Positions 1-53,627 of a DNA stretch of 64,000 nucleotides are shown here, one piece after another (the first letter of the stretch is position 1; each line of letters opens with the position of its first letter). The translations under genes were made by a program, and so were the position numbers. Location: the NCBI RefSeq assembly GCF_046119375.1, contig NW_027362764.1:747534001-747598000 (forward strand), read 5' to 3'. Origin of the DNA: Phyllobates terribilis. Lineage: Eukaryota. The notes under the pieces are model-generated. The model had not been told where the DNA came from, searched no databases, and saw nothing but the letters and a program-made list of their open reading frames with translations.

Positions 1-312
1 GGTCCCCGTGCCACCGGGACTGTGATAAAATTCAATATGCAGCACGGATGGGGCTTTATTAGAGACCATCAGACCCCCGGCGACGTCTTTGTAACTCGCA
101 GAGACGTAGAAAGCCATCTGCCGGAGGGACACAGAGGTCGTGACCTGTATGTAGGGGACGAGGTCACCTTCACCCGGCACAAGTGTGCCAAAGGACCCTA
201 CGCCCTCCATGTGCATCGCCTGATGGAGGAGGAGCTGCGGTGTGAGGAGGAGCAAGAGGACCCGGACTGGTCTGAAGAATCTAAAGAAGGAGCAGGAGGA
301 CGCCGTCGTTGA
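1..312 (+). CDS. 3' end of the cold-shock-domain ORF of an LTR element (5' part lies outside the window)
   Basis: Frame is open from base 1: GPRATGTVIKFNMQHGWGFIRDHQTPGDVFVTRRDVESHLPEGHRGRDLYVGDEVTF...GPYALHVHRL. This matches the CSD pattern (GTV..FN, RNP1 GWGFI, RNP2 DVFV) and is followed by an acidic tail. Paralogous to 48769-49089. Confidence 0.85.
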   Translation, partial: GPRATGTVIKFNMQHGWGFIRDHQTPGDVFVTRRDVESHLPEGHRGRDLYVGDEVTFTRHKCAKGPYALHVHRLMEEELRCEEEQEDPDWSEESKEGAGGRRR

Positions 313-5785: not shown

Positions 5786-6857
5786 GGATACAGGAGGTTT
5801 TCTTAGGCAATGTGTTAGCCAGAGAAGTCTATATACTTTTATGTGATAAATTACATTTGGGTGATACTTTTGGATTAAAAAGGCAAAAGTATTATAGGAG
5901 TACTACCTCTTTGATGGAAAATTGCGTAAAGGTGACCATGATTGTAAAATGTTGGGAGGCATTATTACAGTCATACTTTCAGAAAATATATGGGTTTAGA
6001 GTAAATTTATTATTTTTTCACTAAGGACATAGGTCTTATCAGTGCTTGTAAAAAGCTAATTAAGGTTGGACACAATATATAAGACATTGAAGCCAAGTTT
6101 TGACTTTGTTGGCAACATGCATTGTGAGATACTTGGCAGGTTCACTTTACAGTACATAATGTACACACTATTTGTACATAGCTGCTGGAAATCATCTAAA
6201 TCATTAACAGGAAAGAACATTCCCTCCGATGCTGGGAATCGCCAGCTTGAAGAATATAAGTAACAATGGAGGTATACACAATGTAGACCCCCAATACATC
6301 AATAGATAACATAAAGCCTTACATGCCAAAGTGATGCCTCTGTTCTAAAACCCTGATCAAATTCTGCTTTTCATTGAGGATAATGAGGTACAGGACTTCT
6401 GGCTACATTTCTGCATAATAAGGACAGGCTGTGTAAGCTGGATTTTGGTCGAGACTCCAGCTGACACAATCACATGAGCGCTTATGAAGTCTAAACATGT
6501 AACAGTAAGAACATGACTCGAATAAAATCTGCTAAGTGGGATGAAGGATACTCAGCAATTACAATGCTAATTAATGCACAGAAATGTAATTATGTCACGT
6601 GCCTGTGCTCGCCTTTCTTTAATTCTTTTCATTTTAATGTTATGGAACATTCTTAAAGGGGAGGTTTTCTTAAGGCAAATCCCTTATTATTGTTTGGGAA
6701 ACTGTGATTGACCATGCATTACCCCTACAAAAGCATTTTTATGGCAATTTCACCTGGACTTACATGTGAATATATATTGACCATGTAATAAAAAGGCAGT
6801 TCATCAGAGAAAGATCTGTTCTTTATGATCTTAACATACCTTGAAGATACCTATATA

Positions 6858-8487
6858 CAGTACAGACCAAAAGTTTGGACACACCTTCTCATTTAAAGAT
6901 TTTTCGGTATTTTCATGACTATGAAAATTGTACATTCACACTGAAGGCATCAAAACTATGAATTAACACATGTGGAATTATATACTTAACAAAAAAGTGT
7001 GAAACAACAGAAAATATGTCTTATATTCTAGGTTCTTCAAAGTAGCCACCTTTTGCTTTGATGACTGCTTTGCACACTCTTGGCATTCTCTTGATGAGCT
7101 TCAAGAGGTAGTCACCGGAAATGGTCTTCCAACAATCTTGAAGGAGTTCCCAGAGATGCTTAGCACTTGTTGGCTCTTTTGCCTTCACTCTGCGGTCCAG
7201 CTCACCCCAAACCATCACGATTGGGATCAGGTCTGGTGACTGTGGAGGCCAGGTCATCTGGCGTAGCACCCCATCACTCTCCTTCTTGGTCAAATAGCCC
7301 TTACACAGCCTGGAGGTGTGTTTGGGGTCATTGTCCTGTTGAAAAATAAATGATGGTCCAACTAAACGCAAAAGGGATGGAATAGCATGCCGCTGCAAGA
7401 TGCTGTGGTAGTCATGCTGGTTCAGTATGCCTTCAATTTTGAATAAATCCCCAACAGTGTCACCAGCAAAGCACCCCCACACCATCACACCTCCTCCTCC
7501 ATGCTTCACAGTGGGAACCAGGCATGTAGAGTCCATCCGTTCACCTTTTCTGCGTCGCACAAAAACACGGTGGTTGGAACCAAAGATCTCAAATTTGGAC
7601 TCATCAGACCAAAGCACAGATTTCCACTGGTCTAATGTCCATTCCTTGTGTTCTTTAGCCCAAACAAGTCTCTTCTGCTTGTTGCCTGTCCTTAGCAGTG
7701 GTTTCCTAGCAGCTATTTTACCATGAAGGCCTGCTGCACAAAGTCTCCTCTTAACAGTTTTTGTAGAGATGTGTCTGCTGCTAGAACTCTGTGTGGCATT
7801 GACCTGGTCTCTAATCTGAGCTGCTGTTAACCTGCGATTTCTGAGGCTGGTGACTCGGATAAACTTATCCTCAGAAGCAGAGGTGACTCTTGGTCTTCCT
7901 TTCCTGGGGCGGTCCTCATGTGAGCCAGTTTCTTTGTAGCACTTAATGGTTTTTGCAACTGCACTTGGGGACACTTTCAAAGTTTTCCCAATTTTTCGGA
8001 CTGACTGACCTTCATTTCTTAAAGTAATGATGGACACTCGTTTTTCTTTACTTAGCTGCTTTTTTCTTGCCATAATACAAATTCTAACAGTCTATTCAGT
8101 AGGACTATCAGCTGTGTATCCACCAGACTTCTGCACAACACAACTGATGGTCCCAACCACATTTATAAGGCAAGAAATCCCACTTATTAAACCTGACAGG
8201 GCACACCTGTGAAGTGAAAACCATTTCCGGTGACTATCTCTTGAAGCTCATCAAGAGAATGCAAAGAGTGTGCAAAGCAGTCATCAAAGCAAAAGGTGGC
8301 TACTTTGAAGAACCTAGAATATAAGACATATTTTCAGTTGTTTCACATTTTTTTGTTAAGCATATAATTCCACATGTGTTAATTCATAGTTTTGATGCCT
8401 TCAGTGTTAATGTACAATTTTCATAGTCATGAAAATACCAAAAAATCTTTAAATGAGAAGGTGTGTCCAAACTTTTGGTCTGTACTG
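6858..8487 (-). mobile_element. Tc1-family DNA transposon, full length (1630 bp), 268-bp TIRs
   Basis: TA|CAGTACAGACC...GGTCTGTACTG|TA; TIRs at 6858-7125 and 8220-8487. Confidence 0.95.
7021..8073 (-). CDS. Tc1 transposase, open frame but third catalytic residue mutated (E to V)
   Basis: Paired-like HTH, GRPR, WSDESK and QQDNDPKH are present. It has SPDLIPIVMVW where the sister copy at 62157 has SPDLNPIEMVW. Confidence 0.9.
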   Translation of the reverse strand: MARKKQLSKEKRVSIITLRNEGQSVRKIGKTLKVSPSAVAKTIKCYKETGSHEDRPRKGRPRVTSASEDKFIRVTSLRNRRLTAAQIRDQVNATQSSSSRHISTKTVKRRLCAAGLHGKIAARKPLLRTGNKQKRLVWAKEHKEWTLDQWKSVLWSDESKFEIFGSNHRVFVRRRKGERMDSTCLVPTVKHGGGGVMVWGCFAGDTVGDLFKIEGILNQHDYHSILQRHAIPSLLRLVGPSFIFQQDNDPKHTSRLCKGYLTKKESDGVLRQMTWPPQSPDLIPIVMVWGELDRRVKAKEPTSAKHLWELLQDCWKTISGDYLLKLIKRMPRVCKAVIKAKGGYFEEPRI

Positions 8488-10308
8488 TATATGTATTTAT
8501 GAATAGCATAAAAATGTCTATAGCAGGTACAGTATATATGGTCTTAGAAAAGTATGATCCCCTCCACAGCATGATGGCTCCTACAGCTCCCTAAATGGTA
8601 TGATGGCCCTCACAGCCTACCTATCGGTATTATGCATGACACAACCCCCCCAAATGGTATAATGGCCCTACAATCCCCCATATGGTGTGATGGAACCCAC
8701 AGCCCAAAAACAGTAAGATGACTTCACACAGTAGGATGGTTCCATATTCCCCCACACAGTATGATGCCCCCACACACAGTATGCTGGCTCTATATTCCCC
8801 CACACAGTATGAGGTCCCCACATGTAACTGACAATAAAAAAAATATATACTAGTTACCTTGCTCTGTTTCCTCAATGCTCTGCTCTGATCTGTGCTATGT
8901 TTGTACCAAGTTTGGTACGATCCAGTGACGTCATCACACCTGCTGTACTGTGTCTCATAAGCACAATCTGAATGGTGGGAGAGAGAGATGACAGTTCCCT
9001 TTTCCACCATTGTATTCAACGTTACATCCTGAGGATGCAGATACCGTTAAAATTTTAACAACGGGTGGGGGTATCGCAGTGCCATTTTGCATTGGGCTTC
9101 CCCAACTTACAAGTGGTACATCACTGTTTCAAGCCCATTGGCTGCCCTGATCTGCTGGCCAGACAAGAACAGCCAACAGGCTGGCCTGGTGTATGGAAAT
9201 GGGGTTGTACATTCAAATGCCTCAAATTACACCCATGACCGCCCTGACCCAATATATAATAGAATGCCCATTTTTGGGCTTAATTTGCTTAAACACCACC
9301 CTTTTTGGTTTAGTTTGTGGGATTGCCACAGAAAAATCAAGTTTGTTGGCATGAAACAACCCCTTTAAGCTATGTAATATAACTTATTTGAGAAATATGC
9401 TTTTTATTTCTCCACTTATGATCCCCTCTTCCACATCCTAATCTTTTCATCCACTTTGAAAAGCAGCTCAGCTCAGTCCTACTAAAAAAAGGGTTTCCAT
9501 CACACTGAAGGATCAAATTACAGCTGCCTGTTGGAGTTTATGGAGAAGGAAAGGGGAGGAGGAATGAGCAGAGTGAGAAAGAGAACAGTAGAGTGATAGT
9601 GATACTGCTTTCAAGTAAGTGTTTTGTTTGACCCCAGAGCTGGATTCACAGCTACACTGCTGAGGACTGTTTGCCATTTTCTCTTTGCTGCTGCTTCTGA
9701 AGATATGCCATATGGAGACAGTAGAGCAGGAATCAATCATGTTTCATGTATGGGAGACATCATAGCAGCGTGTCTCTGACCACTAGCTCAGAGACAACAG
9801 AAAATTAGAGAAAGTACCTGCAGAGGGGAAAACTGGAGAACTGATGAAAAATGCAGGATACAAGTCATTTGATGGCCAGAAAAATTGTTATTCCCCATGT
9901 ACACACAACAAATTATTCAGAATCATGAGCTGAAATGAAATTAAAAAGTGAATTTGCCTTTATAATAAGGAAACTGGAGCCTAATAATTCCACCAATTCC
10001 CTAATATTAGGCTGTTTTTGGAATTACTCTTTAAGGGCGAAAGTAATCTGAGAAGTAAAATGTATTTGCCTATGGTTCAGCAGACGCGGGCAGCCATACA
10101 ACGGCCTACATCTTCTAAAATGCTGCAGATTAAGATAAGTGATAAATGTACAGAATAGGTGATAACTTACTGATCACTGGTGGTCCAACTGATGGGACCC
10201 CAATCAATCCCATGAACTGGCCCGGTGGCACAGGCTCTACTCATTGTCTATGGAATAGGTGAAGATAGCCAAGTACAGCGCTGGACTTTCACTGGCAATC
10301 CATTAGAT

Positions 10309-20204: not shown

Positions 20205-21422
20205 TGACGCGCCCCCTGGGCCATATTCTTTAGGGGAATACCCGGAGCCGGATCAGATGGGGGTGGTAGTCTCCGAGTGGCTGTGACCCGGTCCGTGCCC
20301 AGGGTGTCAAGCTCAGTGTATGTGGCAGTCCTACAGATGTTACAAAGTTCGTTATGTCGACTACGCCACCCGTTGGATTGCGGTCACTACGGCCGCCGCT
20401 GCAGCAGGGTCCGCTGAGGCTGATGGTGTTGGTGCAGCTTTAGATAGTATAACCCCCAACGGGAGGGGTATGGCCTCAGGGGGTCAGGTGCAGAGGATGG
20501 GGGTTGTGGTGGTGCAGCGTAGATGATAATTAAAGACAGAGTCGGGTTGTGCAGTTCAGGGTGTTTACTTACTGCAGATATTCCGGTCACTCCGGCCTTG
20601 AGTGACCACCCGAGCCGTGCTGCGTCCACCAGGTCCTGGATTCAGCCAACCCCCAAGCAAGTCCGGAGCGTGTCCCTGAGCCCTCCTTCTTGTCCTTTCT
20701 TCTGGCCGTCCCCACCAGGGATCCACCTAGGTCCAGCTCCCTCGGGCCTTCTGTTGGGAGACCCTTGGCCTTGGGTTCCCTGACCCTACACGTGGTTTGC
20801 CTTCAGGGTGGATGTGGTGGGTGGCCGTGGCAGATTCTGCCCACGGCCTCCGGTCTCTGGCTGAGGTATGCTTTAGCCCCCACCAGTTTGGGATCCGGTA
20901 CCCTGTTGCCAACTCTTCACCCTAGGGTTGTACTTGGGTTCTCAGAGTTCCTTCTGTCTTCCCCTCTCTGGGTCTTTCTTGTTCTCCTCTCTCACTCTCT
21001 CTGGGCCTTGGGCTGCTCTGCTCCTCTGCTTTCTTCCTCTGACTTCTCTGCAAAGACTGGCTGACTGACTGACTGACTGACCCTGATCTTAGATGGTGCC
21101 CACCTTAAATACTCCCTCTATGTGTGAGCTCAGGTGACCAGCACCCAATGAGCTCCTAACTTTACCCAGGCTGCACCCCCTCTCTGCCCCTACACTACTG
21201 GGATGTACCACCCCCCTCCCACTCCAGCCAGGAACAGACTCGGTCGTACCTGCACATTTCTAAGTGGGAGTACCGTTGGTCTGTTCCTCGGAAATGGGAT
21301 GTGTGTAGTGCATGCAGCTTTCTGAGCTCAGATCCACACTCCATCCTTACCCGGGAGTGGAATACCACACCTCTGGTTGAGGTGCAATACCCCTGTAGCA
21401 GCCGAATCCTCAGGGTGCTACA
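20205..21422 (-). mobile_element. Solo LTR, CSD-element family (subfamily A)
   Basis: Reverse complement TGTAGCACCCTGAGG...GCGCGTCA; 4-bp TSD TAAC at 20201-20204 and 21423-21426. Confidence 0.95.
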
Positions 21423-21809: not shown

Positions 21810-23394
21810 CAGTGCCTACAAGTAGTATTCAACCCCCTGCAGATTTAGGTGGTTGACACTTGCGGAATTAACTTGGCATTGTGACATTTGTACTGTAGAT
21901 CAGCCTGGAAGTGGGAAATGCACTGCAGCAACTTTTTTTTGTTTTTTTGTTTTTTTAAAACGTTAAAAGTTAATTCAGAGTGTCATTTATTATTCAACCC
22001 CTCAAACCACAAGAATTCTGTTTGGTCCCCCTAAAGTATTAAGAAGTAGTTCAGGCACCAAGAATAATGAGCTTCACATGTGTGGATTAAAGATCTCTTT
22101 TGCCAGCCTTTTCTGACTATTTAAGACCCTCCCCAAACTTGTGAACAGCACTCAGACATGGTCAACATGGGAAAGACAAAAGAGCATTCCAAGGCCATCA
22201 GAGACAAGATCGTGGAGGGTCACAAGGCTGGCAAGGGGTACAAAACCCTTTCCAAGGAGTTGGGCCTACCTGTCTCCACTGTTGGGAGCATCATCCGTAA
22301 GTGGAAGGCTTATGGAATTACTGTTAGCCTTCCACGGCCTGGACAGCCTTTGAAAGTGTCCTCCCGTGCCGAGGCCAGGTTTGTCCGAAGAGTCAAGGCT
22401 AACCCAAGGACAACAAGGAAGGAGCTCCGGGAAGATCTCATGGCAGTGGGGACACTGGTTTCAGTCAATACCATAAGTAACGTACTCCACCGCAATGGTC
22501 TCCGTTCCAGACGAGACCGTAAGGTACCTTTACTTTCAAAGCGTCATGTCAAGGCTCGTCTACAGTTTGCTCATGATCATTTGGAGGACTCTGAGACAGA
22601 CTGGTTCAAGGTTCTATGGTCTGATGAGACCAAGATCGAGATCTTTGGTGCCAACCACACACGTGACGTTTGGAGACTGGATGGCACTGCATACGACCCC
22701 AAGAATACCACCCCTACAGTCAAGCATGGTGGTGGCAGCATCATGCTGTGGAGCTGTTTCTCTGCCAAGGGGCCTGGCCATCTGGTCCGCATCCATGGGA
22801 AGATGGATAGCACGACCTACCTGGAGATTTTGGCCAAGAACCTCCGCTCCTCCATCAAGGATCTTAAGATGGATCGTAATTTCATCTTCCAACAAGACAA
22901 CGACCCAAAGCACACAGCCAAGAAAACCAAGGCCTGGTTCAAGAGGGAAAAAGTCAAGGTGTTGGAGTGGCCTAGTCAGTCTCCTGACTTTAACCCAATT
23001 GAAAACTTGTGGAAGGAGCTCAAGAATAAAGTCCACATGAGACACCCAAAGAACCTAGATAACTTGGAGAAGATCTGCATGGAGGAGTGGGCCAAGATAA
23101 CTCCACAGACCTGTGCCAGCCTGATCAGGTCTTATAAAAGACGATTATTAGCTGTAATTGCAAACAAGGGTTATTCCACAAAATATTAAACATAGGGGTT
23201 GAATAATAATTGACCCACACTTTTATGTTTAAAATTTAATAAAATTCAACTGAGCAACATAACTTTTAGGTTTGTAAGATTTATGCTTCTGTTCATAAAA
23301 CCTACTCTCGTTTGCAGTTTGAAGGCTCTAACTTATTTGCATCTTATCAAACCAGCTAAATCTGCAGGGGGTTGAATACTACTTGTAGGCACTG
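21810..23394 (+). mobile_element. Tc1-family transposon, full length (1585 bp)
   Basis: TA|CAGTGCCTACAAGTAGTATTCAACCCCCTGCAGATTT with an exact inverted end followed by TA. Confidence 0.95.
22167..23189 (+). CDS. Tc1 DD34E transposase, apparently intact (alternative ATG at 22158)
   Basis: MGKTKEHS..., WSDETK, QQDNDPKH, then 34 residues to SPDFNPIE; no stops. Confidence 0.92.
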   Translation: MGKTKEHSKAIRDKIVEGHKAGKGYKTLSKELGLPVSTVGSIIRKWKAYGITVSLPRPGQPLKVSSRAEARFVRRVKANPRTTRKELREDLMAVGTLVSVNTISNVLHRNGLRSRRDRKVPLLSKRHVKARLQFAHDHLEDSETDWFKVLWSDETKIEIFGANHTRDVWRLDGTAYDPKNTTPTVKHGGGSIMLWSCFSAKGPGHLVRIHGKMDSTTYLEILAKNLRSSIKDLKMDRNFIFQQDNDPKHTAKKTKAWFKREKVKVLEWPSQSPDFNPIENLWKELKNKVHMRHPKNLDNLEKICMEEWAKITPQTCASLIRSYKRRLLAVIANKGYSTKY

Positions 23395-25630: not shown

Positions 25631-27280
25631 CAGTTATATGAAAAAGTTTGGGCACCCCTATTAATCTTAAGCTTAATGTTTTATAAAAATTGGTGTTTTT
25701 GCAACAGCTATTTCAGTTTGATATATGTAATAACTGTTGGACACAGTAATGTTTCTGCCTTGAAATGAGGTTTATTGTACTAACAGAAAATGTGCAATCT
25801 GCATTCAAACAAAATTTGACAGGTGCATAAGTATGGGCACCTCACCAGAAAAGTGACATTAATATTTAGTAGATCCTCCTTTTGCAAAAATAACAGCTTC
25901 TAGTCGCTTCCTGTAGCTTTTAATGATTTCCTGGATCCTGGATAAAGGTATTTTTGACCATTCCTCTTTACAAAACAATTCCAGTTCAGTTAAGTTTGAT
26001 GGTCGCCGAGCATAGACAGCCCTCTTCAAATGATCCCACAGATGTTCAATGATATTCAGGTCTGGGGACTGGGATGGCCATTCCAGAACATTGTAATTGT
26101 TCCCCTGCATGAATGCCTGAGTAGATTTGGAGCGGTGTTTTGGATCATTGTCTTGCTGAAAGATCCATCCCCTGCGTAACTTCAACTTTATCACTGATTC
26201 TTGAACATTATTGTCAAGAATCTGCTGATACTGAGTGGAATCCATGTGTCCCTCAACTTTAACAAGATTCCCAGTGCCGGCATTGGCCACACAGCCCCAA
26301 AGCATGATGGAACCTCCACCAAATTTTACTGTGGGTAGCAAGTGTTTTTCTTGAAATGCTGTGTTTTTTTGCCACCATGCATAACGCCTTTTTGTATGAC
26401 CAAACAACTCAATCTTGGTTTCATCAGTCCACAGGACATTCTTCCAAAAAGAAATTGGCTTCTCCAAATGTGCTTTTGCATACCTCAGCCGACTCTGTTT
26501 GAGGCGTGCTTGCAGAAACGGCTTCTTTCGCATCACTCTCCCATACAGCTTCTCCTTGTGCAAAGTGCGTTGTATAGTTGACCGATGCACAGTGACACCA
26601 TCTGCAGCAAGTTGATGCTGCAGCTCTCTGGAGGTGGTCTGAGGATTGTCCTTGACTGATCTCACCATTCTTCTTCTCTGCCTTTCTGATGTTTTTCTTG
26701 GCCTGCCACTTCTGGCCTTAACAAGAACTGTACCTGTGTTCTTCCATTTCCTTACTATGTTCCTCACAGTGGAAACTGACAGGTTAAATCTCTGAGACAG
26801 CTTTTTGTATCCTTCCCCTGAACAACTATGTTGAATAATCTTTGTTTTCAGATCATTTGACAGTTGTTTTGAGGAGCCCATGATGCCACTCTTCAGAGGA
26901 GATTCAAACAGGAGAACAACTTGCAAGTGGCCACTTTAAGTAGCTTTTCTCATGATTGCATACACCTGGCTATGAAGTTCAAAGCTCAATGAGGTTACAA
27001 AACCAAAAAAAGTGCTTTAGTAAGTCAGTAAAAAGTAGGTAGGAGTATTTAAAACAAGAAAATGATAAGGGTGCCCATACTTATGCACCTGTCAAATTTT
27101 GTTTGAATGCAGATTGCACATTTTCTGTTAGTACAATAAACCTCATTTCAAGGCAGAAACATTACTGTGTCCAACAGTTATTACATATATCAAACTGAAA
27201 TAGCTGTTGCAAAAACACCAATTTTTATAAAACATTAAGCTTAAGATTAATAGGGGTGCCCAAACTTTTTCATATAACTG
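25631..27280 (-). mobile_element. Tc1-family IR/DR-type transposon, full length (1650 bp), 211-bp TIRs
   Basis: TIRs 25631-25841 and 27070-27280 look identical by eye; inner repeat of the GGGCACC motif; flanks TA / CA. Confidence 0.95.
25859..26881 (-). CDS. Tc1 DD34E transposase, apparently intact (340 aa)
   Basis: MGSSKQLSNDLK..., GRPRK, WTDETK, QQDNDPKH, then 34 residues to SPDLNIIE. Confidence 0.92.
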   Translation of the reverse strand: MGSSKQLSNDLKTKIIQHSCSGEGYKKLSQRFNLSVSTVRNIVRKWKNTGTVLVKARSGRPRKTSERQRRRMVRSVKDNPQTTSRELQHQLAADGVTVHRSTIQRTLHKEKLYGRVMRKKPFLQARLKQSRLRYAKAHLEKPISFWKNVLWTDETKIELFGHTKRRYAWWQKNTAFQEKHLLPTVKFGGGSIMLWGCVANAGTGNLVKVEGHMDSTQYQQILDNNVQESVIKLKLRRGWIFQQDNDPKHRSKSTQAFMQGNNYNVLEWPSQSPDLNIIEHLWDHLKRAVYARRPSNLTELELFCKEEWSKIPLSRIQEIIKSYRKRLEAVIFAKGGSTKY

Positions 27281-33164: not shown

Positions 33165-34985
33165 CTCTCGTTGGATGCTGAGAAAGCATTCCATAGAGTC
33201 TCCTGGCACGCCATATATGATTCTCTTAAAAAGCTTGGGGTAGGGGTCTAGGGGACCCTTTTATAGCCAAAATCACGGCCCTGTATCACAATACGTCACC
33301 TAGGCTGAAGATAAATGGAACTGTAGCACCCTGAGGGCTCGGTTGCTACAGAGGTATTGCACCTCACCCAGAGGTGTGATATCTCACTCTCAGGTAAGGA
33401 TGGAGTATGGATCAGGACCCGACACCTGCATGCATTACACCACATTGCCATGGGGCAGGGCGACCAATATGCCTCTGAGATGGGCACGACAGTCCCTGTC
33501 CCTGGCTGGAGTGGGGGGAGGGAACACTGAGGAAGGGGAACCCTGTAGTGCAGGAGCAGGGAGGAAGCAGTTCCTGGGTGCATTGAGAAGGGAGTATAAA
33601 AGGTGGGCACCGTCTTAGTTCAGTGCAGAGAAGTCTGAGCAGAAGTGGCAGGGAGCAGGGGCTCTGCATGAGCTCTGCTCCGGAGGCGGGCCTAGTAACA
33701 GAGGCCCAGGCCTGGAAGAGGGAGAAGGAAGGAAGAGGAGCAGAGAAGGCTCCAGGAACGAGGAATGAAGGGATCCCAGGGGTGCGGACGGGCGAGTCAC
33801 CACCGCACGCCCGAATCCACCTGCGTGGAGGGGTCAGGCCAAAGGGGGAGACCGGTCCCTGAAACTAGTGGAGTCAGGAAACGACCCTCAGCTAGAAACC
33901 GGAGGCTGTGACATTTTATGTGGCGCAGCCCCTCGCTACACCCGCTAGGAAGGCACCACATAGGGTCAGGGAAACTAGCGCCAAGTTTACCAAGAGGAGG
34001 CCCGAGGCAGCCGGACAGAAGGGTTGGTAAGAAAGGCCAGACAAAGGACACACAAAGGGGGTCCTGTGAAGCGCTCCAAAGTTATCTGGGAGTTGTCTGA
34101 GCCCCTCACCTGGTGAGCACAGTACGACGTGGGCAGCCGTTACCTGCAGACGTGGTCTGGATAATAAGAACTGTGAGTAAAGGCCCTGGACTGCATCACT
34201 GACTCCGTGTCGTTACTGCTGCTGCCCTGCACCATCACCCCCATCCTCCGCATACACTGCCCTGAGGCTATACTCCTCCCGTGGGGAGTTATGCTACGCT
34301 CTGCTGCACCCACAACACCAGCCTCAGCGGTCTGCCCTGCAGCGGCGGTTCACTCTGACCGCAATCCACGGGTGGCGTAGTCGGACATTTAAACATCAAA
34401 ACCACATAAATAGTTCCGCCACTGGTTTGACCACCCTGAGCCACGGAACCGGGTCGCCGCCACGAAGACTACAACCACCAGCATCCACCAAAAAGGGTCC
34501 GGCTCCGGGTGTCCCAAGGCCCAGGGGGTGCATCAGAACATTTTCATCACCTTTCACAATCACCAATGGGACAAGGCAGGGATGTCCTCTGTCCCCTCTC
34601 TTATACATCCTAGTGACGGAGCACCTGCTCTCATCAATTCGCCATAACCCCAATATTAGGTGGATTGAGGTGGGAGGCACCGAGTACAAGTGCTCTCTAT
34701 TTGCTGATGATGTCCTAGTATATATCACTCAATCACATATATCCATCCATGCTGTTATGGCTGAAATAGATCACTTTGTTACATGGTCAAATTTTAAAAT
34801 CAATGCAGCGAAGTCTGAGGCCCTCGATGTCTCCCTCCCCAAATCCATATAGGATTCCAACCAGTCCAACTTTCCCTTTGCCTGGCCCTCACAGGGTATC
34901 AAATACTTAGGAATTCCTATTCATAGAGACCTCTCCCATCTATGTTATCTTAATTTTGGGCCCTTTATTGAACAACTCCATACAG
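33165..34985 (+). pseudogene. L1/Tx1-type reverse transcriptase fragment, interrupted by a solo LTR
   Basis: SLDAEKAFHRVSW...LKINGT|FSSPFTITNGTRQGCPLSPLLY...LFADDVL...KYLGI. Confidence 0.85.
33322..34535 (+). mobile_element. Solo LTR, CSD-element-related (A-like)
   Basis: TGTAGCACCCTGAGG...GGGGGTGCATCA; TSD GAAC at 33318-33321 and 34536-34539; removing it restores the L1 RT frame. Confidence 0.92.
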
Positions 34986-35057: not shown

Positions 35058-36420
35058 CACTGTGTTCCAAATTATTATGCAAAAAGTGTTTAGGAGTGAT
35101 AAGGGAAGAATTTGTTTGTTTGTCAGTTAAACTTATTGATGGTCATGTGTGTCAGGGCTCTTTATATCACTGTAAGCAATTGCAGACACCTGTGCTAATT
35201 AGTTTGGCAGGTGTGTCCAATGAAAGGCAAGACTACTTAAGAAGGCTGTCTCACATTATTAAGCAGCCTACATTTTCTGCCAAAATGGGAAAGAAAAAGG
35301 ATGTGTCGGCTGCTGAGAAGCAACAAATTGTGGAGTGTTTAGGTCAAGGCATGACTACAATCAACATTGTGCGATGATCAGGATGAAGTGTCTTGGCAAT
35401 CAAGATGTATGTAACTGATTCACAGTACACACGTGTGCGTGCTGATAAGGGCAAATTGAGGACTCTTTCCTACAGGCAATTACGTCAGGTTAAAAGAGCA
35501 GCGGCAAAAAAGCCTTGTCATAGCAGCAGACAAGTTTTTGAAGCTGCTGGTGCCTCCAACGTCCCCCGAACAACAAGATGCAGGGTCCTTCAGAGGTTTG
35601 CAGCTGTGCATACGCCATCCTGTCGACCTCCTCTATCCACTTCACACAAGCAGAAACGGCTCCAGTGGGCTAAACATTACATGAAGACTGATTTCAAAAC
35701 TGTTTTGTTCACGGATGAGTGCCGTGCAGCGCTCGATGGTCCAGATGGATGGAGTGGAGGATGGCTGGTTGATGGACACCCCACGCAAACACGGCTACAG
35801 CGCCAACAAGGAGGAGGTGGAGTAATGTTTTGGGCTGGAATCATGGGGAGAGAGATTGTCGGCCCCTTTAGGATCCCTGAAGGCGCTAAAGATGAACTCC
35901 ATAATGTATGTGGATTTTCTCAAACAGCACTTCCTGCCATGGTTCAAGAAGAAGAACCGTGTATTTCACAGCAAGATCATTTTGTTGCATGATAATGCAC
36001 CATCTCATGCTGCACATAAAACATCTGCATCTCTGGCTGATATGGACATAAAAGGGGACAAACTTATGGTGTGACCTCCATGCTCCCCTGACCTCTACCC
36101 CATTCAGAACCTCTGGAGCATCATCAAAAGGAGTGTCTATGATGGCGGGAGGCAATTCACATCTAAGCAACAGCTCTGGGAGGGTATTCTGTCATCATGC
36201 AAAACAATTGAAGCAGAAACCATCCAAAACCTGACAAATTCAATGGACGAGAGAGTTCAGAAGCTCCTTTCGAACAAGGGGTCCTATGTGAAAATGTAAC
36301 ATCACCTAGAATAAAGTTTTGAGTTGAAAACTGTTTGATTTCAGTTTCTAATAACCTGCTAATGCTTATAATTTCAAAAATGACCATTTTTTTGGTCTTT
36401 ATTAAAATGAAAAGGTTGAT
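35058..36420 (+). mobile_element. DD37E (TRT-type) Tc1-superfamily element, degenerate, right end deleted
   Basis: TA|CACTGTGTTCCAAATTATTATGC; MGKKKDVSAAEK, FTDECRAALDGPDGW, HDNAPSH, then 37 residues to the (mutated) E position; frameshifts and stops. Confidence 0.8.
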
Positions 36421-36866: not shown

Positions 36867-39800
36867 TTACTCTCCCCAGGATGACACAGGGGTAGAAAAG
36901 TCGTTTCGGATCCATGATTTGTTCATCTTTATGAACGTGAGTCTGTCTACATTATCAGTGGAGAGCCGCGTGCGCTTATCTGTCAGCACACCACCAGCAG
37001 CGCTGAACACACGTTCAGACAGAACGCTGGCTGCGGGGCATGACAAGATCTCCAAGGCGTAAGTGGCTAGCTCCGGCCATTTATCCAGATTGGAAGCCCA
37101 AAAAGAGCAAGGGTCCAGTGACACAGTCATGGCTTCAATGTTTACTTGGAGATACTCCTGTACCATCGTCTCTAGGCGTTGACTATGTGTCAGACTTCTT
37201 GTCTCCTGTGGCCCTTCAAAGGATGGGCTAAAAAAGTGGTGAAATGATTCCGCAAAATTGATGTTACCAGCAGATACTGTGGTTCTGTTACGGTTTGAGT
37301 GCTGAACACTTGACGGTCCCACGGTTGGCAAGTTGGAACTGTGAGATTCACTACGTGCACCACTGGTGTTTTGTGGAAAAGCACATGTAAGATTCTGCAA
37401 CAGTCTCTGCTGATACTCCTGCATGCGTGCATCCCTTTCTATGGCAGGAATAATTTCGGCAAATTTACTTTTGTACCGGGGATCTAACAGTGTGGCAACC
37501 CAGTAGTCAGGATTATTTCTAATTCTCACAATTCGAGGGTCATGTTGCAGGTAGTGCAGCAAGAAGGCACTCATGTGTGTTGCGCATCCAGGAGCACCAA
37601 GTCCCTGTTGTGTTGGTGGCGAGGTAACAATCATGCTTCCTTCCTCTGTCCTCTCCCCCCAACCTCGCACAACAGAAATGTGATCAAGGTCTCCCTCATC
37701 TGATGAGTCTTCCATCAGTTCGTCCTCCACTTCTTCCTGGGCTCCTGCACCTTCCTCACTAGTTTGGCTGCTACCATGCGCCCTGGTAAAACCATCTCCC
37801 TCACCCTCACATGCCTGCCGCCTTGGTGCTGCCGACCGTCTGGACCTTGCAGATGTTAGCCCTTCCGCATACAACTCCTCCTCCTCTACTTCCTCCACCT
37901 CCTCTTGTGCCACCACCTGACTCCGAATTCTGTTTAACATGTGCTCCAGCATGTAAATCACCGGAATAGTCATGCTGATAATGGCATCGTCAGCACTAAA
38001 CATCTTCGTCGCCATTTCAAAACTGTGCAGAAGGGTGCATAGGTCCCTGATCTGAGACCACTCCTCCAGCGTGATTTGCCCCACCTCTGGATCTCGTTGG
38101 CCCAGGCTATACGTCAGAACGTATTGCACCAGGGCTTGTCGGTGCTGCCACAGTCGCTGCAACATGTGCAGAGTTGAATTCCACCGGGTAGGCACATCGC
38201 ATTTTAGCCGGTGAAGTGGCAGGCCCAACGACTTCTGTAGAGATGTAAGTCGCTGAGCTGCGGGATGCGAACGGCGGAAGTGAGCACACAGCGACCGTGC
38301 CCTCTGCAGAAGGCCATCTAGTCTGGGATAGTGGGCTAAAAATTGCTGGACAACCAGGTTCAACACGTGAGCCATACAAGGCACGTGTGTGACATTGCCT
38401 CGGCGAAGGGCCGCACCCAGGTTTGCAGCATTGTCGCACACGGCCTTCCCTGGTTTCAGGTCCAGTGGAAACAGCCATTCATGAAATTGGTTCTCCAGAG
38501 CTGACCACAACTCCTCAGCTGTGTGACTCAGATTTCCCAGACATTTCAAAGTAAAAACCGCCTGATGACGTTGAGCCCTACTGCCAGCATAGTAAGGAGG
38601 TGTGCAGGATCCCTTCTGAGCAGTTAGAAAGCTTGTGGCATGACCAGACAGGCTTTGGGTGCAGGTGGAAGACCGAGAGGAGGTTGAGGAGGCGAAGCAG
38701 TGGAGGAACTTTGACATAAAGAGGATTGACGCACAACTCGTGGGGACGGCAAGACTTGGACAGCAGCCCCTTGTCCTGCTGTCACCATAGTTACCCAGTG
38801 CCCAGTCAGCGACATGTAACGCCCCTGTCCATGCCTACTCGTCCAAGTGTCTGTGGTGAAATGCACCCTGTCACACACAGAGTTTCTCAAAGAAGCGGTG
38901 ATGTTGTGTGCGACATGCTGGTGGAGCGCAGGCACACCTTTCTTTGAGAAGTAGTGCCGACTGGGCATCTGGTACTGGGGCACTGCGACGGACATAAGGT
39001 CTCGTAAATCCTCTGTGTCCACCAGGCGGAAAGGCAGCATTTCTGTAGCCAAGAGCTTGCAGATGGTGAAATTCAACCTCTTAGCTTTCTCACGGCTAGG
39101 AGGAAATGGTCTTTTACTTGTCCACATCTGAGGGACCGAGGGCTGGCTATTGTGCTTAGACGGGGTTGATAAGGGTGTCCCCGGCAAACTGCCGGTCTGT
39201 GAGGAAGATGCAGGCGGACATGTTAGGTTGCCTTGATCCAAAGGTGGTGCTATCGATGTCGGACAGCGCTCAACACCAGCTGGTGTTACCACCTCCAAAG
39301 AAAATGATGACCTGCCAATCACGCTGGCTGTTGCGGGTAAAGAGGTGGCAGGTCTGCGCCCCAAAACAGGTGTGACTGCTGTCCCCCCAGTCACAGAGGA
39401 TGAAGAGGCCGCGGATGCACAAGATATGGCAGACGGTGGTTGGCCCGGCCGGCTAGGCCGCATTGTAGCACACTGAGCTTCCCACTGCAACTTATGCTTC
39501 ATGTCCATGTGCCGGTTCATGCATGAAGTACTCAAACTATGTATTTTTTGGCCTCTACTTAGCTTTTGCTGACAAATGTTACAGATAACACGAGTTGGGT
39601 CATCTTTATCGATCTGAAAAAATGCCCAGGCTATGCAAGGCTTAGCACCCATGCGACCTGAAGAGCCACCACGACTTGTGGTGAGAGGCAGAGTTGTGTT
39701 TGAGGATGCAGTTGTTGACATGCTTCCAGTACTATGTCTCTGTCCAGGAAGGCGCAACCTGACCTCGTCGTCACTAGCATCTTCCTCCACCTCCTCTGCT

Positions 39801-40567
39801 GACCTCATCTCTTGGCTGACTGTGGGTTGACAGTAAGTGGGATCTCCAACCTCATCATCATCACCCTGTGCGTTATCACACCAGTCGTCCTCAGAGCCAA
39901 CCTGTTCCTGCCCTGACAAAAAACTAAAGTTGTCGCTCCAATCAGGTATTTGAGTCTTATCATCGTCTTCCTCATTGTCTCCACCAACAGGAGTTACAGT
40001 TTGGGAATGAGGGTCTACATTATGGTCAGAACCTTCTGCGTCTGGTCCTGGATCCGACTCATAAAGATTCTGGGCATCAGTGCAGATCATTTCCTCGTCT
40101 GGATTCACAGAAGCGCTGGAGTCGACCTCTGATTCCCAGGCTATAGTATGAGTAAATAGCTCTGCAGACTCAACCATCTGTTCTACCTCATACTCAGACG
40201 GGCAGCTGGAGATTTGGGAGCTGTGAGGAAGCAAGTGCGATTGGGGTGACACCTTTGAGGACTGGAGTATTTGTGATGTTGAAGTTGATGTGGAGGAGAG
40301 CCCACTTAAAGGAGCACTTGATATCCGTTGAAGCACCTGCTGTTTTTGTGCCTCATCTGGAATTTGTAGCGATTGGCGTGGCCGTAAGAAAGGGATCTTA
40401 TCACATTGTCCGCTAAAAGAAGTAGACATTTTAGTTTGGCTGGAAGATGGTCTTTCTTCTGCAGATGTTACTGTTGCTTTAACACCTACCCCACGGACAC
40501 AACCTTTTTTCCCCTTCCCAACACGCCTATTCCCCTTTCCACCAGCAGCAGGCCTTTTTCCACTCAT
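36867..40567 (-). pseudogene. hAT transposase (BED finger, DDE, dimerisation domain), one 1-bp frameshift near 38692
   Basis: ORF 38624-40567 has BED (AWAFF..CNIC..HMDMKH) and FTTDTWT. ORF 36867-38717 has CDNAAN, PCMAH, TRWNST and CPAASVLSERVFS. One added base joins the two frames. Confidence 0.9.
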
Positions 40568-40679
40568 TTTGGTGGTTAACTAATTCACAACTCTGGAGTT
40601 GTTTGCACAAAAAAACAATGGATGGGAACCGAGCAGAGCTGAGTGTCCAAACTGTGGTATTAGGCCAAAACTATTGGCT

Positions 40680-44128: not shown

Positions 44129-45563
44129 ATTGGAGGGTTTATCTCATCATCATGAAAGCTTAAAATTGCAAAAACCAAGCAACTTTGTAATTTGCCTTTT
44201 ATTTCAAATTTTCTCCGTTCTTAAGAACAGAGTGATATTTTAATTCACTTGTTCGATACACAAGTTACTGGCTACCCAGAGCTGCCAGTCTCCTTTGCAA
44301 GAGCCCTATGTTTACAAACTCTTGTCTATACAGCATGTAAGCGCTGCTCTAAAGCTGTCCCGATCACTGGATCCGGTCAGCCCCATTCCCCCTGCACTAT
44401 TATGATGCTGCAAAGGCAAAACAACCTCAGCTGGCATCATGGGGGAGTGAACAGTTCTGGCTGGCGGTGTAGCCATGCCACTGGACCAAATTGTCAATCA
44501 TCTTGAAAATCCATATTGAAACAAACCCTTTAAAGGGGTATTTTTACAGTAAACGCTAAGGAATGCCAATCACCCAGCCTTGTTCAGTGATTGGTGGATG
44601 GACATAGTAACATAGTAACATAGTAACATAGTTTTTCAGGTTGAAGGAAGACTAAGTCCATCTAGTTCAACCCATAGCCTAACATGTTGATCCAGAGGAA
44701 GGCAAAAAAAACCCATGTGGCAAACACTAAGCTCCACATTGGGGAAAAAAATTCCTTCCCGACTCCATACGACAATCAGACTAGTTCCCTGGATCAACGC
44801 CCTATAAAGGAATCTAGTATATATAACCTGTAATATTATACTTTTCAAGAAAGGCATCCATGCCCTTCTTAAATGTTAGTAGTGAATCACTCATTACAAC
44901 ATCATGCGGCAGAGAGCTCCATAGTCTCACTGCTCTTACAGTAAAGAATCCCCGTCTGTGATTATGATTAAACCTTCTTTCCTCCAGACATAGAAGATGC
45001 CCCCTTGTCCCCGTCTCTGGCCTCAGAGTAAAAAAATCAGTAGAAAGGTCTTTGTACTGTCCCCTCATATACTTGTACATAGTAATAAGATCACCCCTAA
45101 GCCTTCTTTTTTCCACAGTAAATAACCCCAAGTGTAATAACCTGTCTTGGTATTGCAGACCCCCCAGTCCTCTAATAACCTTGGTCGCTCTTCTCTGCAC
45201 CCGCTCTAGTTCAGCTATGTCTTTCTTATACACCGGAGACCAGAACTGTACACAGTATTCTAAGTGTGGTCGCACTAGTGACTTGTATAGAGGTAAAATG
45301 ATGTTCTCCTCATGAGCATCTATGCCTCTTTTAATGCATCCCATTATTTTATTTGCCTTTGCAGCAGCTGCCTGACACTGGCCACTAAACGTGAGCTTGT
45401 CGTCCACAAATACACCCAGGTCTTTTTCAGTTACAGTTTTGCCCAGTGTTTTACAATTAAGCATATAATTATACATTTTATTTCCTCTGCCCAAGTGCAT
45501 TACCTTACATTTATCCCCATTAAAGCTCATTTGCCATTTATCAGCCCAAGCTTCTAGTTTACA

Positions 45564-45570
45564 TACAGTA
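45564..45570. other. Tc1/mariner excision footprint TACAGTA
   Basis: Deleting 5 bp restores ILQEDLCKLEAWADKWQMSFN in frame. TA-CAG-TA is the canonical footprint of CAG-terminated Tc1 elements. Confidence 0.75.
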
Positions 45571-47082
45571 GATCCTCCTGTAATATAAAATTGTCCTCCT
45601 CTGTATTGATTACCCTGCAGAGTTTAGTGCCATCTGCAAATAGTGAAATACTACTCTGTATGCCCCCTACAAGGTCATTAATAAATATGTTAAAAAGAAG
45701 GGGGCCCAATGCTGACCCCTGTGGTACCCCACTGTTAACTGAGACCCAGTCTGATTGTTTTCCATTAATAACCACCCTTTGTTTCCTATCACTGAGCCAA
45801 TTCTTAACCCACATACATATGTAGCACCCTGAGGATTCGGCTGCTACAGGGGTATTGCACCTCAACCCAGAGGTGTGATATTCCACTCCCGGGTAAGGAT
45901 GGAGTGTGGAACTGAGCTCAGTTAGCTGCATGCACTACACACATCCCATTTCCGAGGAACAGACCGATGGTACTCCCACTAGAGAAATGTGCAGGTACAA
46001 CAGTGTCTGTTCCTGGCTGGAGTGGGAGGGGGGTGGAACATCCCAGTAGTGTAGGGGCAGATAGGGGGAGCAGCCTGGGTAAAGCTAGGAGCTCATTGGG
46101 TGCTGGTCACCTGAGCTCACACATAGAGGGAGTATATAAGGTGGGCACCATCTTAGATCAGGGTCAGTCAGTGAGACATCAGTCTTTGCAGAGGAGTCTT
46201 TTGTAGAAGGCTGGTCAGTCTGTCAGTCTTTTGCAGAGCAGTGGAGGAAAGCAGAGGAGCAGAGCAGCCCCAAGGCCAAGAGTGAGAGAGGAGTTTGAAA
46301 GACCCAGAGGGGGAGAAAGAAGGAACTCCAAGAGCCCAAATTAGACCAGAGGGTGAAGAGTTGGCAACAGGGTACCGGATCCCAAGCTGGCAGAGGCTAC
46401 AGCACACCTTAGCCAGGAACCGGAGGTCGTGGGCAGGATTGATCTGCCACGATCACCCACTAAATCCACCCGGAAGGCAGACCACGAATAGGGTCAGGGA
46501 ACCCAGAGACAAGGGTTTACCACCAAGAGGCCCGAGGGAGCCGGACATAGGTGGATCCCTGGTGGGGAAGGCCAGAGAAGAGGACAGGACAGAAAGGGAG
46601 CTCAGAACCACGCTCCAGAACTACTTGGGGGTTGGCCGAGTCCAGGACCTGGTGGACGCAGCGCAGCTCGGGTGGTCACTCAAGGCCGGAGTGACCGGTA
46701 CAAGAACAGCAGTAAGTAAACAAACCCTGAACTGCACAGCCCGACTCTGACTCTCATTACCATCCTCACTGCACCTCCACAACCACCATCCTCTGCACCT
46801 GACCCCCTGAGGCTATACCCCTCCCGTTGGGGGTTATACTACCTGGGCTGCACAAACACCATCAGCCTCAGCGGACCCTGCTGCAGCGGCGGCCGTAGTG
46901 ACCGCAATTCAACGGGTGGCGTAGTCGACATAAAGAACTTTAGTAACATCAGTAAGGACTGCCACACACTGAGCTTGACACCCTGGGCATGGACCGGGTC
47001 ACAGCCACTCGGAGACTACAACCCCCATCTGATCCGGCTCCGGGTATCCCCAACAACACTGGCCCAGGGGGCGCGTCAACTT

Positions 47083-47100
47083 TGGCGTAGTCGGCAGGAT
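47083..47100 (+). promoter_or_regulatory. Primer-binding site for tRNA-Ser
   Basis: TGGCGTAGTCGGCAGGAT is the complement of the vertebrate tRNA-Ser(AGA/TGA) 3' end ATCCTGCCGACTACG-CCA; it lies 4 nt after the 5' LTR. Confidence 0.9.
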
Positions 47101-47259
47101 TACGTGCCCGCAACAACCGGGTACTGCGTGCCTGAAGAAAAGTTCATCGTTACCTTAAAAAGAAGTCTCCTGCCGGTTCCGGAGGGTCCCCGCCATCGGG
47201 CCCCATCACAGGTCGTTTCCCGCCGGTTGTCCGCCATTTGCAGCTTTTTCCCGCCATCC

Positions 47260-49089
47260 ATGGAGTTTCCCGCCACTGGGAGACGATTCCCGCCATTTCC
47301 GAAGATTTCCCGCCTTGGGGGAGCGGACGCCATTATGGGCGTGCCAGAGGGTGGCAAGAGGCCACCTCCCATCGTGGGCCAGGTCGAAGAATGGCGCCAA
47401 AAGCGGAAACCGCGCCCACCAACAGAGACTGTGATGCTGGAAGTGTCCATCAGCGTAAGAGAACTGCCCCTGGAACTGAAGTTGCCCCGGGACCACCCTC
47501 GATGTGGGCGGAGACAGAAGAAGAGAACAAAGATGGGTGTCGCCTGGAGCAGTCTGGAGAGAGCGCACCCGGAGACAAGACGTCTGGAAGAGTGTCCAGA
47601 GAGAGCCTACCCGGAGATGGAGGGAGAGCCAGGCAGCACCGACCCAGCGGTCAGGAGCCTGATGCGGGCCGCCACTCCAGGCAGCACCGACCCAGTGGTC
47701 AGGAGCCTGTTGCAGGTCGCCACTCCAGAAGGCCTGCTGGAGATCCTAGCACAGCTCCCCCGAGACCGGGAGTGTGCACAGACCGCGCTGGAGGGCCTCG
47801 CACAGAGGTTGGCCCGGGTGCAACGAGAGACGTTGGCGGAGTGGAGCCGAGAGATGGCCCAGCAGACCGAGACTCGTCAGCGGAGCACGCCGCCAGAGAC
47901 GAGGAGACAGACCGCCTCTGAGGATGGCGCAGGAGGACTGAAGGCCGGAGACGGCGCCGAGAAGGGAGCCGAACGAATGGAGGCAGGTAAAGGGGACGTC
48001 ACTACCCCGAGCCGGGAAACCGCGTGCCTGCCCCAGCTCCCCGTCGCAGAGCCCGAAGTACCCCCTGCCGTGCCCGTCGCTGCAACGTCACCGCCGCAGA
48101 CTAGGCCTCAAACGGAAGCCGCGACCCCTGTGACGTCACACGCCTCGACCCCGAGCGTGGCCAAGCAGGAAGTACCATCGGCCTGGTCGCAAGGCCTAGT
48201 ACCCCCGGGCGCCGCAATACCAACAGCGCCCCCTACCTCCGCGGAGCCCCCGGCCTGGTCGCAGGGCCAAGTAACACGGGGCGCCGCCGTTCTGACGGTG
48301 CCCTTTACTTTCAAGGTGCCCCAGGCCTGGTCGCAAGGCCTGGTTAACCCGGGCGCCGCTACCACCACGGCGCCCATAACACCTAAAGTACCGCACCTGG
48401 GTGAGGACCTGTTCGCCCAGCATACGTGCCCGGATGGGCAGCCCTTCGTATGGCCCCAGGAATACATCCAGCTGGAGCTGCAAAAAGCAAGGGCCATGTG
48501 CGAACCCCTGATCCCGGCTCCAAAGCCCATAAAGAGGATCTCGCCCCCGCTAGAAGAGACCCAGTTTGAGTGGGATCCCACCGGAGAAGACCTCATGGGG
48601 TTCACTCAGGAGACTCGGGCAGCCGCAGCGGAGCGTGCAGAGTGCTGCCGCCAGCAGCTCGAGGTCTTTGAGAGGGAGCGGAGAGAGAGGCGGGTCCGGG
48701 AACAACAAGCCCAAATAAGGAGCGCGGAGCAGAAGAGCCGGACCAGGAGAAACCCCCGTGCAGCGCATGGTCCCCGTACCATCGGGACTGTGATAAAGTT
48801 CAATCTGCAGCATGGGTGGGGTTTCATCAGGGATCACCGCACCCCAGGCGACGTCTTCGTGACCAGGAGAGACGTTGAGTCCCACCTACCGGAGGGACAC
48901 AGAGGTCGTGACCTGTATTTAGGGGACGAGGTCACCTTCACCCGGCACAAGTGTGCCAAAGGACCCTACGCCCTCCATGTGCATCGCCTGACGGAGGAGG
49001 AGCTGCGGTGTGAGGAGGAGCAAGAGGACCCGGACGGGTCTGAAACTGAAACTGTCCACAAAGAAAGAGCAGGAGGACGCCGTCGTTGA
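47260..49089 (+). CDS. LTR-element protein with C-terminal cold-shock domain (609 aa; 584 aa if ATG 47335 is used)
   Basis: Uninterrupted frame; helical/coiled segments, Pro/Ala/Thr-rich repeats, CSD at ~48784-48990, acidic tail. Confidence 0.85.
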   Translation: MEFPATGRRFPPFPKISRLGGADAIMGVPEGGKRPPPIVGQVEEWRQKRKPRPPTETVMLEVSISVRELPLELKLPRDHPRCGRRQKKRTKMGVAWSSLERAHPETRRLEECPERAYPEMEGEPGSTDPAVRSLMRAATPGSTDPVVRSLLQVATPEGLLEILAQLPRDRECAQTALEGLAQRLARVQRETLAEWSREMAQQTETRQRSTPPETRRQTASEDGAGGLKAGDGAEKGAERMEAGKGDVTTPSRETACLPQLPVAEPEVPPAVPVAATSPPQTRPQTEAATPVTSHASTPSVAKQEVPSAWSQGLVPPGAAIPTAPPTSAEPPAWSQGQVTRGAAVLTVPFTFKVPQAWSQGLVNPGAATTTAPITPKVPHLGEDLFAQHTCPDGQPFVWPQEYIQLELQKARAMCEPLIPAPKPIKRISPPLEETQFEWDPTGEDLMGFTQETRAAAAERAECCRQQLEVFERERRERRVREQQAQIRSAEQKSRTRRNPRAAHGPRTIGTVIKFNLQHGWGFIRDHRTPGDVFVTRRDVESHLPEGHRGRDLYLGDEVTFTRHKCAKGPYALHVHRLTEEELRCEEEQEDPDGSETETVHKERAGGRRR

Positions 49090-52000: not shown

Positions 52001-52965
52001 GACCATCAACTCGTATATTTGATATGCGGTCTGGCCAATTGGTTAATATTAGGTCTAGCAGTGCCCCCCTTCTTGTTGGGTCCTGAACCAGTTGTGAAAG
52101 GTAATTGTCTCTCATAGTTGTCAAAAACCTATTACCTTTGCTTGAACTACATGTTTCTGTCCCCCAATGTATTTCAGGGTAGTTGAAGTCTCCCATAATA
52201 ATGACTTCTCCTTGAGTCGCTGCTTCATCTATTTGCTTTACGAGGATATTCTCCGCTACTTCCATTATTTTTGGAGACTTGTAACAAACCCCTATCAGTA
52301 ATTTATATTTTTTTCCCCCTCCCCTTATCTCCGTCCACAGGGACTCTACATTTTCATTAAATTCACATATATCCTCCCGCAAGACAGGTTTTAAGGATGA
52401 TTTTTCATATAAACACACCCCCCTCCCTCGCTTGTTTGTACGGTCATTTCTGAACAGACTATAGCCCTGTAAATTAACTGCCCAGTCATGGCTCACGTCC
52501 AGCCATGTCTCAGATATCCCCACCATGTCATAATTATTTTACAACAAAATTAATTCGAATTCCTCCATTTTGTTGGTGAGGCTTCTGGCATTAGTGTACA
52601 TGCATTTTATGTATCTCTCTGTACCTCTATTCCTTCTTACTTTATTGACTGTTCTAACCCCACCCCCAATTTCTTTATTTGTGCCCAGGTCACTATCTGC
52701 ACTATCTTCCCCACCTATAAAATGAATACCCCCCCCCCAAATCCCTAGTTTAAACACTCCTCCAACCTTCTAGCCATTTTCTCCCCCAGCACAGCTGCAC
52801 CCTCCCCATTAAGGTGCAGCCGGTCCCTAGCGTAGAGTCTGTAGCCAACTGAGAAGTCGGCCCAGTTCTCCAGGAACCCAAAATCCCTCCTTCCTACACC
52901 AGCTCTTGAGCCACTTATTTATCTCCCTAATCTCCCGTTGCCTCTCTGGCGTGGCACGTGGTACC

Positions 52966-53581: not shown

Positions 53582-53590
53582 AAGTCCAGC
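53582..53590 (+). promoter_or_regulatory. Putative self-priming PBS
   Basis: No TGG-type tRNA PBS. AAGTCCAGC is complementary to GCTGGACTT at 53246-53254, 30 nt after TATTTAA (53216). Confidence 0.65.
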
Positions 53591-53627
53591 CTGCAAATTC
53601 TCTAAGGAAAGATTTTTCTGTTCCATC

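Follow-up and report, generated by a model that had tools for sequence, protein, structure and literature searches.

An LTR element lacking gag and pol with a cold-shock domain under strong purifying selection in Phyllobates terribilis

The 64,000-nucleotide stretch of Phyllobates terribilis DNA analysed here (the window) contains two young LTR elements, copies A and B, each 4.9-5.0 kb long and each with a single ORF that ends in a cold-shock domain (CSD). Neither copy contains gag or pol (PR, RT, RH, IN), and they are thus not autonomous Ty3/Gypsy elements. The CSD is nonetheless under strong purifying selection, and we consider it reasonably probable that the protein binds the transcript of its own element and helps that element to be copied by a related Ty3/Gypsy. 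The selection is noteworthy precisely because the element lacks gag and pol, a point that was not made in an earlier reading of this DNA (the original prediction).

Anatomy of the CSD elements and their family

Both copies have the features of LTR retroelements, namely paired LTRs, a primer site, a polypurine tract and a target duplication. Copy A extends from 2,892 nt upstream of the window (L001:7108) to position 2017. The 3' end of its ORF occupies positions 1-312 of the plus strand, encoding the CSD and an acidic/basic tail and ending in a TGA at 310-312, and is followed on the same strand by a polypurine tract recognised by its sequence (764-772) and by the 3' LTR (TGTAG...GTCA, 773-2017), which is 99.76% identical to the copy's own 5' LTR. 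The target duplication CAGG (2018-2021) is directly past the 3' LTR. Copy B is a complete element (45820-50817, plus strand), with a 5' LTR (45820-47078) and a 3' LTR (49559-50817) that are also 99.76% identical, a target duplication (CATA, 45816-45819 and 50818-50821), and a polypurine tract (49550-49558) assigned in the same way. Its primer-binding site (47083-47100) is complementary to the 3' end of tRNA-Ser and is common to the candidate helper Gypsy described below. Among loci carrying the primer-complementary motif, 2 of 14 were called as tRNA-Ser(TGA); none of the first four was a tRNA-Ser (one was called Ala, and Rfam gave none), and the two calls came from the next ten. A second primer-site-like motif (TGGCGTAGTC) is present in the 3' part of the LTR, at 46916-46928 and 50656-50668, and the LTR of the candidate helper retains it.

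The single ORF of copy B (47335-49089, plus strand) encodes an N-terminal segment that is likely helical, a Pro/Thr/Ala linker, a long helix, the CSD and the tail. Two candidate start ATGs are widely shared, at 47335 (57 of 59 elements) and at 47533 (58 of 59). The predicted charged helix of 45 residues (48616-48750) lies ahead of the CSD (48769-48999), and both are on the plus strand.

Two solo LTRs are also present in the window, one of the CSD-element family on the minus strand at 20205-21422 with a target duplication of GTTA, and a more diverged one (69-74% identity to copy B) on the plus strand at 33322-34535 with GAAC on either flank. Copy A lies in a minisatellite of about 38 bp (2018-2328, and upstream in L001), and two copies of the candidate helper (L204 and L205) likewise adjoin tandem repeats. 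Copy B is inserted in a minus-strand LINE ORF2 with endonuclease and RT (44814-45934 and 50688-52538), which we take to be CR1-like, and the same LINE is interrupted again at about 53159-58113 by an unrelated Ty3/Gypsy with LTRs of 421 bp that are 99.5% identical and a Tf2-like SH3 domain. Other frames in the window presumably belong to Tc1-like transposases (6853-8493, 22125-23189, 25631-27280, 35387-35992 and 61988-63622) and to a hAT-like transposase (36867-40579).

A degenerate CSD pattern has 15,119 matches in the genome compared with 3 in the control, giving a family of no fewer than 15,119 copies. With at least 15,000 elements of about 4.8 kb each, the family occupies at least 70 Mb of the 10.6-Gb genome, solo LTRs aside. 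Our sample comprises the first 90 pattern matches in position order on contig C1, and thereby extends over about the first 60 Mb of a single contig and is limited to copies with the exact GWGFIRDH motif. Three with a stop, frameshift or deletion were dropped to leave 87, to which the two window copies were added; in one tandem pair the second member was not counted separately. Sixty copies were taken at full length; in every one the LTRs are paired (97-100% identical) and the internal region is too short for pol. The elements are 4.6-5.0 kb long with an internal region of 2.2-2.6 kb in 59 of the 60, the remaining one being a tandem pair; a perfect 4-bp target duplication is present in at least 47 by a strict pattern, and the frame is open from an MG(A/V)(A/T)W motif through the tail in 46. 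Internally deleted copies without part or all of the CSD also occur (L180, L192, L201, L103 and L142).

The nearest named relatives are in poison frogs, an aromobatid and a toad. There is also an older LTR-bounded family with 57-66% identity in the CSD, and this has the same layout where the ends are readable, clearly so in 3 of 12 loci. No autonomous CSD carrier was found among these 12 loci; pol is nearby in two, on the opposite strand in one and outside the CSD element's own LTRs in the other. Many small contigs (C685 and C71, for example) hold equal-scoring copies of the older CSD element, which probably sit inside a large tandem unit.

Purifying selection and the role of the CSD protein

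The original prediction held that the CSD is under purifying selection, with dN/dS well below 1, and this is borne out by a value of about 0.10 across the 87 sampled and two window copies. Omega is 0.097 in the 5' half and 0.096 in the 3' half of the CSD, piN/piS is 0.127 over codons 1-77, and a single residue is shared at 62 of the 77 CSD positions. Variants shared by at least two copies comprise 96 silent and 29 replacement changes, whereas private variants comprise 21 and 58 (p 2e-12), and the contrast persists when the eight codons fixed by the search pattern are left out (84:29 for shared versus 21:58 for private variants). Private variants fit the neutral expectation (p 0.5-0.7). As private variants are neutral and shared ones constrained, selection acts on the copying lineages and not on the inserted copies; inserted copies therefore decay neutrally, and lineages that continue copying retain the protein. 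An omega of about 0.1, together with the difference between shared and private variants, likewise supports the earlier interpretation that the CSD is functional for the element.

The constraint varies along the ORF. Regional piN/piS was calculated from 59 full elements (3 of the 60 were skipped for unreadable ends, and copies A and B were included), and is lowest in the CSD (0.10, or up to 0.13 depending on the estimate), followed by the helix region (0.15 for 48568-48768), the N-terminal segment (0.35), the linker (0.63) and the leader (0.72). Non-coding controls (UTR and LTR) range from 0.5 to 1.2, and the linker and leader are near these. Silent diversity in the same 59 elements is 0.42-0.47 across the helix and CSD (48400-48999) compared with 0.1-0.25 in windows of the leader, linker and LTR, and alleles in the helix and CSD seem to be older than those elsewhere in the element.

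The host might impose such a constraint if it needed the protein from a few domesticated source loci that also seed the other copies. Gene annotations of several frogs include related proteins, and a few source loci could yield subfamilies, but at least six haplotype groups co-exist and recombine, young insertions with intact LTR pairs are dispersed, and the older LTR-bounded family has the same layout. These observations fit serial turnover of mobile lineages, and we regard a host-imposed constraint as improbable. Selection on the element's own behalf is the reading we pursue here.

The CSD (PF00313) is the only Pfam domain in the ORF, and scores 40.2 bits in copy A and 36.1 bits in copy B against a gathering cut-off of 27. 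AlphaFold2 predicts a five-stranded CSD barrel (pLDDT 92) with the 45-residue helix ahead of it, and Foldseek aligns the barrel to CspA with a TM of 0.80-0.81. The best PDB sequence matches are YB-1 and YBX2 (50.8 bits, with the top eight at 49-51, versus 42 for CspA and 27.5 for Lin28), whereas Foldseek, which compares structures, ranks bacterial proteins first; ESM Atlas yielded only generic CSD clusters, under 0.9. In common with YBX1 and YBX2, the element CSD has a long strand 3-4 loop, aligns with gaps of at most one residue, and retains the RNP1 aromatics and the RNP2 Phe of the binding face (W17, F19 and F30). It differs in having only about 32% identity, in its C-terminal position behind a long helix, and in two changes on the binding face, where Lys10 stands opposite the Trp of the YB-1 KWF motif and Thr32 opposite the His of VFVH (Thr or Asn among element CSDs). 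Since these are two canonical binding residues, nucleic-acid binding may be altered or lost. In a tree of 35 CSD rows the frog element CSDs do not join the Y-box proteins with support, and the deep forks are weak; we nevertheless infer, from sequence, that the CSD was captured from a host Y-box gene. Two ENA proteins (P0203 and P0146) have the helix and a more Y-box-like CSD in which the Trp and His are kept, and are possible relatives in other animals; the C-terminal stretch of P0203 is, we assume, macro-domain-like, for which Pfam gives no confirmation.

If the element protein is made, as we presume, it is predicted to bind its own transcript, and once bound it would stabilise or refold that transcript or promote its entry into helper particles, thereby serving as a putative RNA chaperone or packaging/stability factor. 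The benefit would fall mainly on the RNA encoding it, because if every element gained alike, replacements would not be removed within individual lineages. In an element whose enzymes are all borrowed, selection among lineages suggests a protein that acts to the advantage of the very RNA or locus from which it was produced. CSDs bind single-stranded DNA as well as RNA, and there is perhaps a minor chance that element-level selection favours a protein acting on DNA (the LTR promoter or single-stranded cDNA) or against host silencing, by protecting its transcript against small-RNA or masking pathways. Such action predicts the same selection pattern, DNA complexes are among the structural matches of the element CSD, and the altered RNP2 allows new specificity. 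However, if its targets were genomic LTRs or host pathways, the protein would be expected to serve all copies alike and hence to be under weak lineage selection, in contrast to the observed omega of about 0.1 in several co-existing subfamilies. We therefore prefer binding to the element's own RNA, for which a possible analogy, and only that, is the support that host YB-1 gives to HIV RNA metabolism and virion production, as described in PMC6040738. Protein cis-preference in an LTR parasite can be tested on this element, as can the role of a Y-box-like domain in a retroelement.

Mosaic structure of the copies

We compared copy A (1-276) with copy B (48769-49044) codon by codon without gaps. The counts given in the original prediction are reproduced exactly, with 19 synonymous and 4 non-synonymous codon differences in codons 1-40 and 0 and 3 respectively in codons 41-92, and the two silent changes that it singled out, R cgc/agg and S agc/tcc, are at codons 33 and 38. 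At the nucleotide level, 26 of 120 positions differ in the first segment (pS of 0.66) and 3 of 156 in the second, a switch in density with a Fisher p of 9e-8. The 19:4 ratio of silent to replacement differences departs from the silent share of 0.25-0.29 expected under neutrality (p about 1e-7 to 1e-8), and MaxChi on informative sites places the best break directly past nt 120 (p 2e-4). The description of codons 1-40 as silent-saturated holds for codons ~10-40, but differences are sparse to the left of codon ~10, as they are in the 70 codons upstream, for which bases before the window were added. With a left edge near codon 10 the saturated tract is a patch, at 28-120 in copy A and 48796-48888 in copy B on the plus strand, nt 120 being the last A-type site. 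It is followed on the same strand by the 3' half of the CSD and the start of the tail (121-276, equivalent to 48889-49044 in copy B), which are near-identical among K61-type subfamilies. M75 is private to copy A and is carried by none of the 87 sampled copies.

A GARD-like scan peaks at codons 40-48, with a gain of 355-366 lnL compared with 188 +/- 22 (maximum 243) in 60 random splits, in agreement with the predicted breakpoint near codon 40; the profile is broad, however, with a shoulder at codons 20-36, and so points to several breakpoints. Among the 861 pairs formed by 42 haplotype representatives, which are not independent of each other, 21 are significant, and 9 of these break at nt 120-134 with the others spread. 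The proposal that both copies are recombinant mosaics applies to their whole length, as blocks of 0-2% difference between A and B alternate with blocks of 5-24%, although the codon-40 break is only the commonest of several. The PHI test is weak (p 0.02-0.05), and incompatibility is higher inside the 5' half (1.01) than between the halves (0.89), such that the signal is evidently blurred by homoplasy or dense crossovers. Each half rejects the tree built from the other (AU p<1e-70), an incongruence that is overstated by the use of two short, separately fitted trees. The differences between groups in the 5' and 3' halves are 23.5/2.8 for A and B, 23.6/6.3 for A and the sister group, and 11.8/5.7 for B and the sister group, and given these distances a single event in the lineage of copy A (1-312) is the simplest account of the codon-40 junction by unrooted parsimony, making that lineage the putative recombinant.

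The codon-40 switch might instead reflect a nucleotide-level constraint on the 3' half, such as RNA structure or an overlapping signal. Mean silent diversity is indeed lower in codons 41-77 (0.36) than in codons 1-40 (0.48), and the PHI result is weak for recombination. When copies are grouped by residue 61 (K61 or Q61), however, silent divergence in the 5' and 3' halves is 0.562 and 0.560 for K-Q pairs and 0.386 and 0.416 for Q-Q pairs, and only K-K pairs differ (0.421 and 0.187). Because K-Q divergence is equal in both halves, the 3' half is not inherently constrained; the 45 shared silent variants in codons 41-77 also contradict the constraint, which is largely refuted and which we judge very unlikely.

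An assembly chimera at the junction, which the original prediction named as an outcome that would overturn it, is excluded. The two repeats are similar, lie 49 kb apart and are part of a very repetitive genome, and the assembled contigs of four sequencing runs on 1-330 are short, with none spanning nt 120 with 31 letters per side (the best 73-146). Nevertheless, each 5' type is found again, with the same 3' half, at scattered loci: the A-type 5' half is joined to the shared 3' half at each of the 29 further top-scoring loci retrieved, which lie on seven contigs, the B type is found at 30 of 30, and an A-like 5' half is present in 14 of the 87 position-sampled copies, leaving the chimera a negligible probability. 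Summed depth of read contigs rises past nt ~120 in all four sequencing runs, although this depth is not a measure of copy number.

Recombination is thus upheld, and in itself is ordinary retroelement biology, whereas template switching, to which it had been attributed, is an inferred cause. According to PMC13570524, such mosaics are normally produced when the template is switched between co-packaged RNAs, and those seen here likely arose in this way, from RNAs of different subfamilies. Gene conversion in a source copy, which gives an indistinguishable pattern, may also have produced them.

A candidate helper and the relation to known elements

The primer site has 69,769 matches in the genome and none in the control. 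The first 30 of these lead to a zinc-knuckle Gag in 15 instances (one weakly), to a CSD ORF in 14, and to neither in one, and the CSD element is therefore roughly as frequent as the candidate helper. Long gag and pol frames are present in 8 of the 9 Gag-type loci fetched at length, and most of these loci are about 7.9 kb long, have the order PR-RT-RH-IN, and are flanked by LTRs that are 98.6-99.9% identical. These Ty3/Gypsy elements (Metaviridae; L203-L211) resemble the CSD element in their tRNA-Ser primer site, LTR end (GCGTCA), polypurine tract, 4-bp duplication and young age, with 72-78% identity to copy B over the 3' part of the LTR and the leader. They differ in having a PNMA-like gag with a zinc knuckle as well as pol, and none of the Gag-type loci contains a CSD. 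No blastp match was found between the CSD ORF and the candidate helper Gag or Pol (best E 0.33), and a complex prediction for helper Gag with the helix and CSD, run without alignments, scored 0.03, which we do not weigh either way. The shared primer site and LTR end suggest that this complete Ty3/Gypsy is likely the helper of the CSD element.

A broader scenario, which we put forward tentatively and hold somewhat less probable than its opposite, is that these elements constitute a satellite-like class in hyloid frogs, which would have dropped gag and pol and captured a host Y-box CSD. The self-encoded, cis-preferring RNA-binding protein would then outcompete the helper Gypsy for packaging or reverse transcription, and CSD halves would be swept between subfamilies in the manner of an arms race.

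Non-autonomous LTR elements are commonly regarded either as passengers without coding capacity or as remnants with Gag alone; the internal region of a LARD is non-coding, and a TR-GAG encodes Gag only. The CSD element differs from a LARD in having an ORF under purifying selection and apparently also from a TR-GAG, as its ORF has no Pfam match to Gag and no blastp match to the helper Gag. It is a non-autonomous LTR element that keeps a domain of nucleic-acid-binding type at an omega of about 0.1. With TRIM, LARD and TR-GAG elements, as described in PMC13570524, it shares LTRs, a primer site, a polypurine tract and target duplications, as well as solo LTRs, tandem copies, probable template-switch mosaics and dependence on a helper. 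Its length of 4.6-5.0 kb is within the >4 kb given for LARDs in PMC13570524, whereas TRIMs, in the same usage, are non-coding, unlike the CSD element with its non-retroviral domain under purifying selection.

Gypsy elements are already known to capture domains, and PMC9289625 describes orchid Gypsy elements with a captured AlkB m6A demethylase, encoded by an extra ORF in large elements of 25 kb. The two systems are alike in that a host RNA-acting domain with its own ORF is fixed in an LTR element, but AlkB is an additional ORF in the orchid elements, whereas the CSD is in the sole ORF of an element lacking gag and pol. In the literature searched we found no LTR element with a CSD, and so none that lacks gag and pol and keeps the domain under selection; 'cold shock' has no occurrences in the main texts of PMC12208295 and bioRxiv 2023.11.06.565769, and 'cold' has none in the main text of PMC9289625. 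The family may already be deposited in Repbase or Dfam.

Several frog gene models contain this CSD fused to unrelated genes or are named Y-box-binding protein 2-A-like (P0002, P0173, P0177, P0181, P0122 and P0176). These are likely annotated pieces of the CSD element, which would explain why such models are called 'Y-box-binding protein-like' or are joined to unrelated genes.
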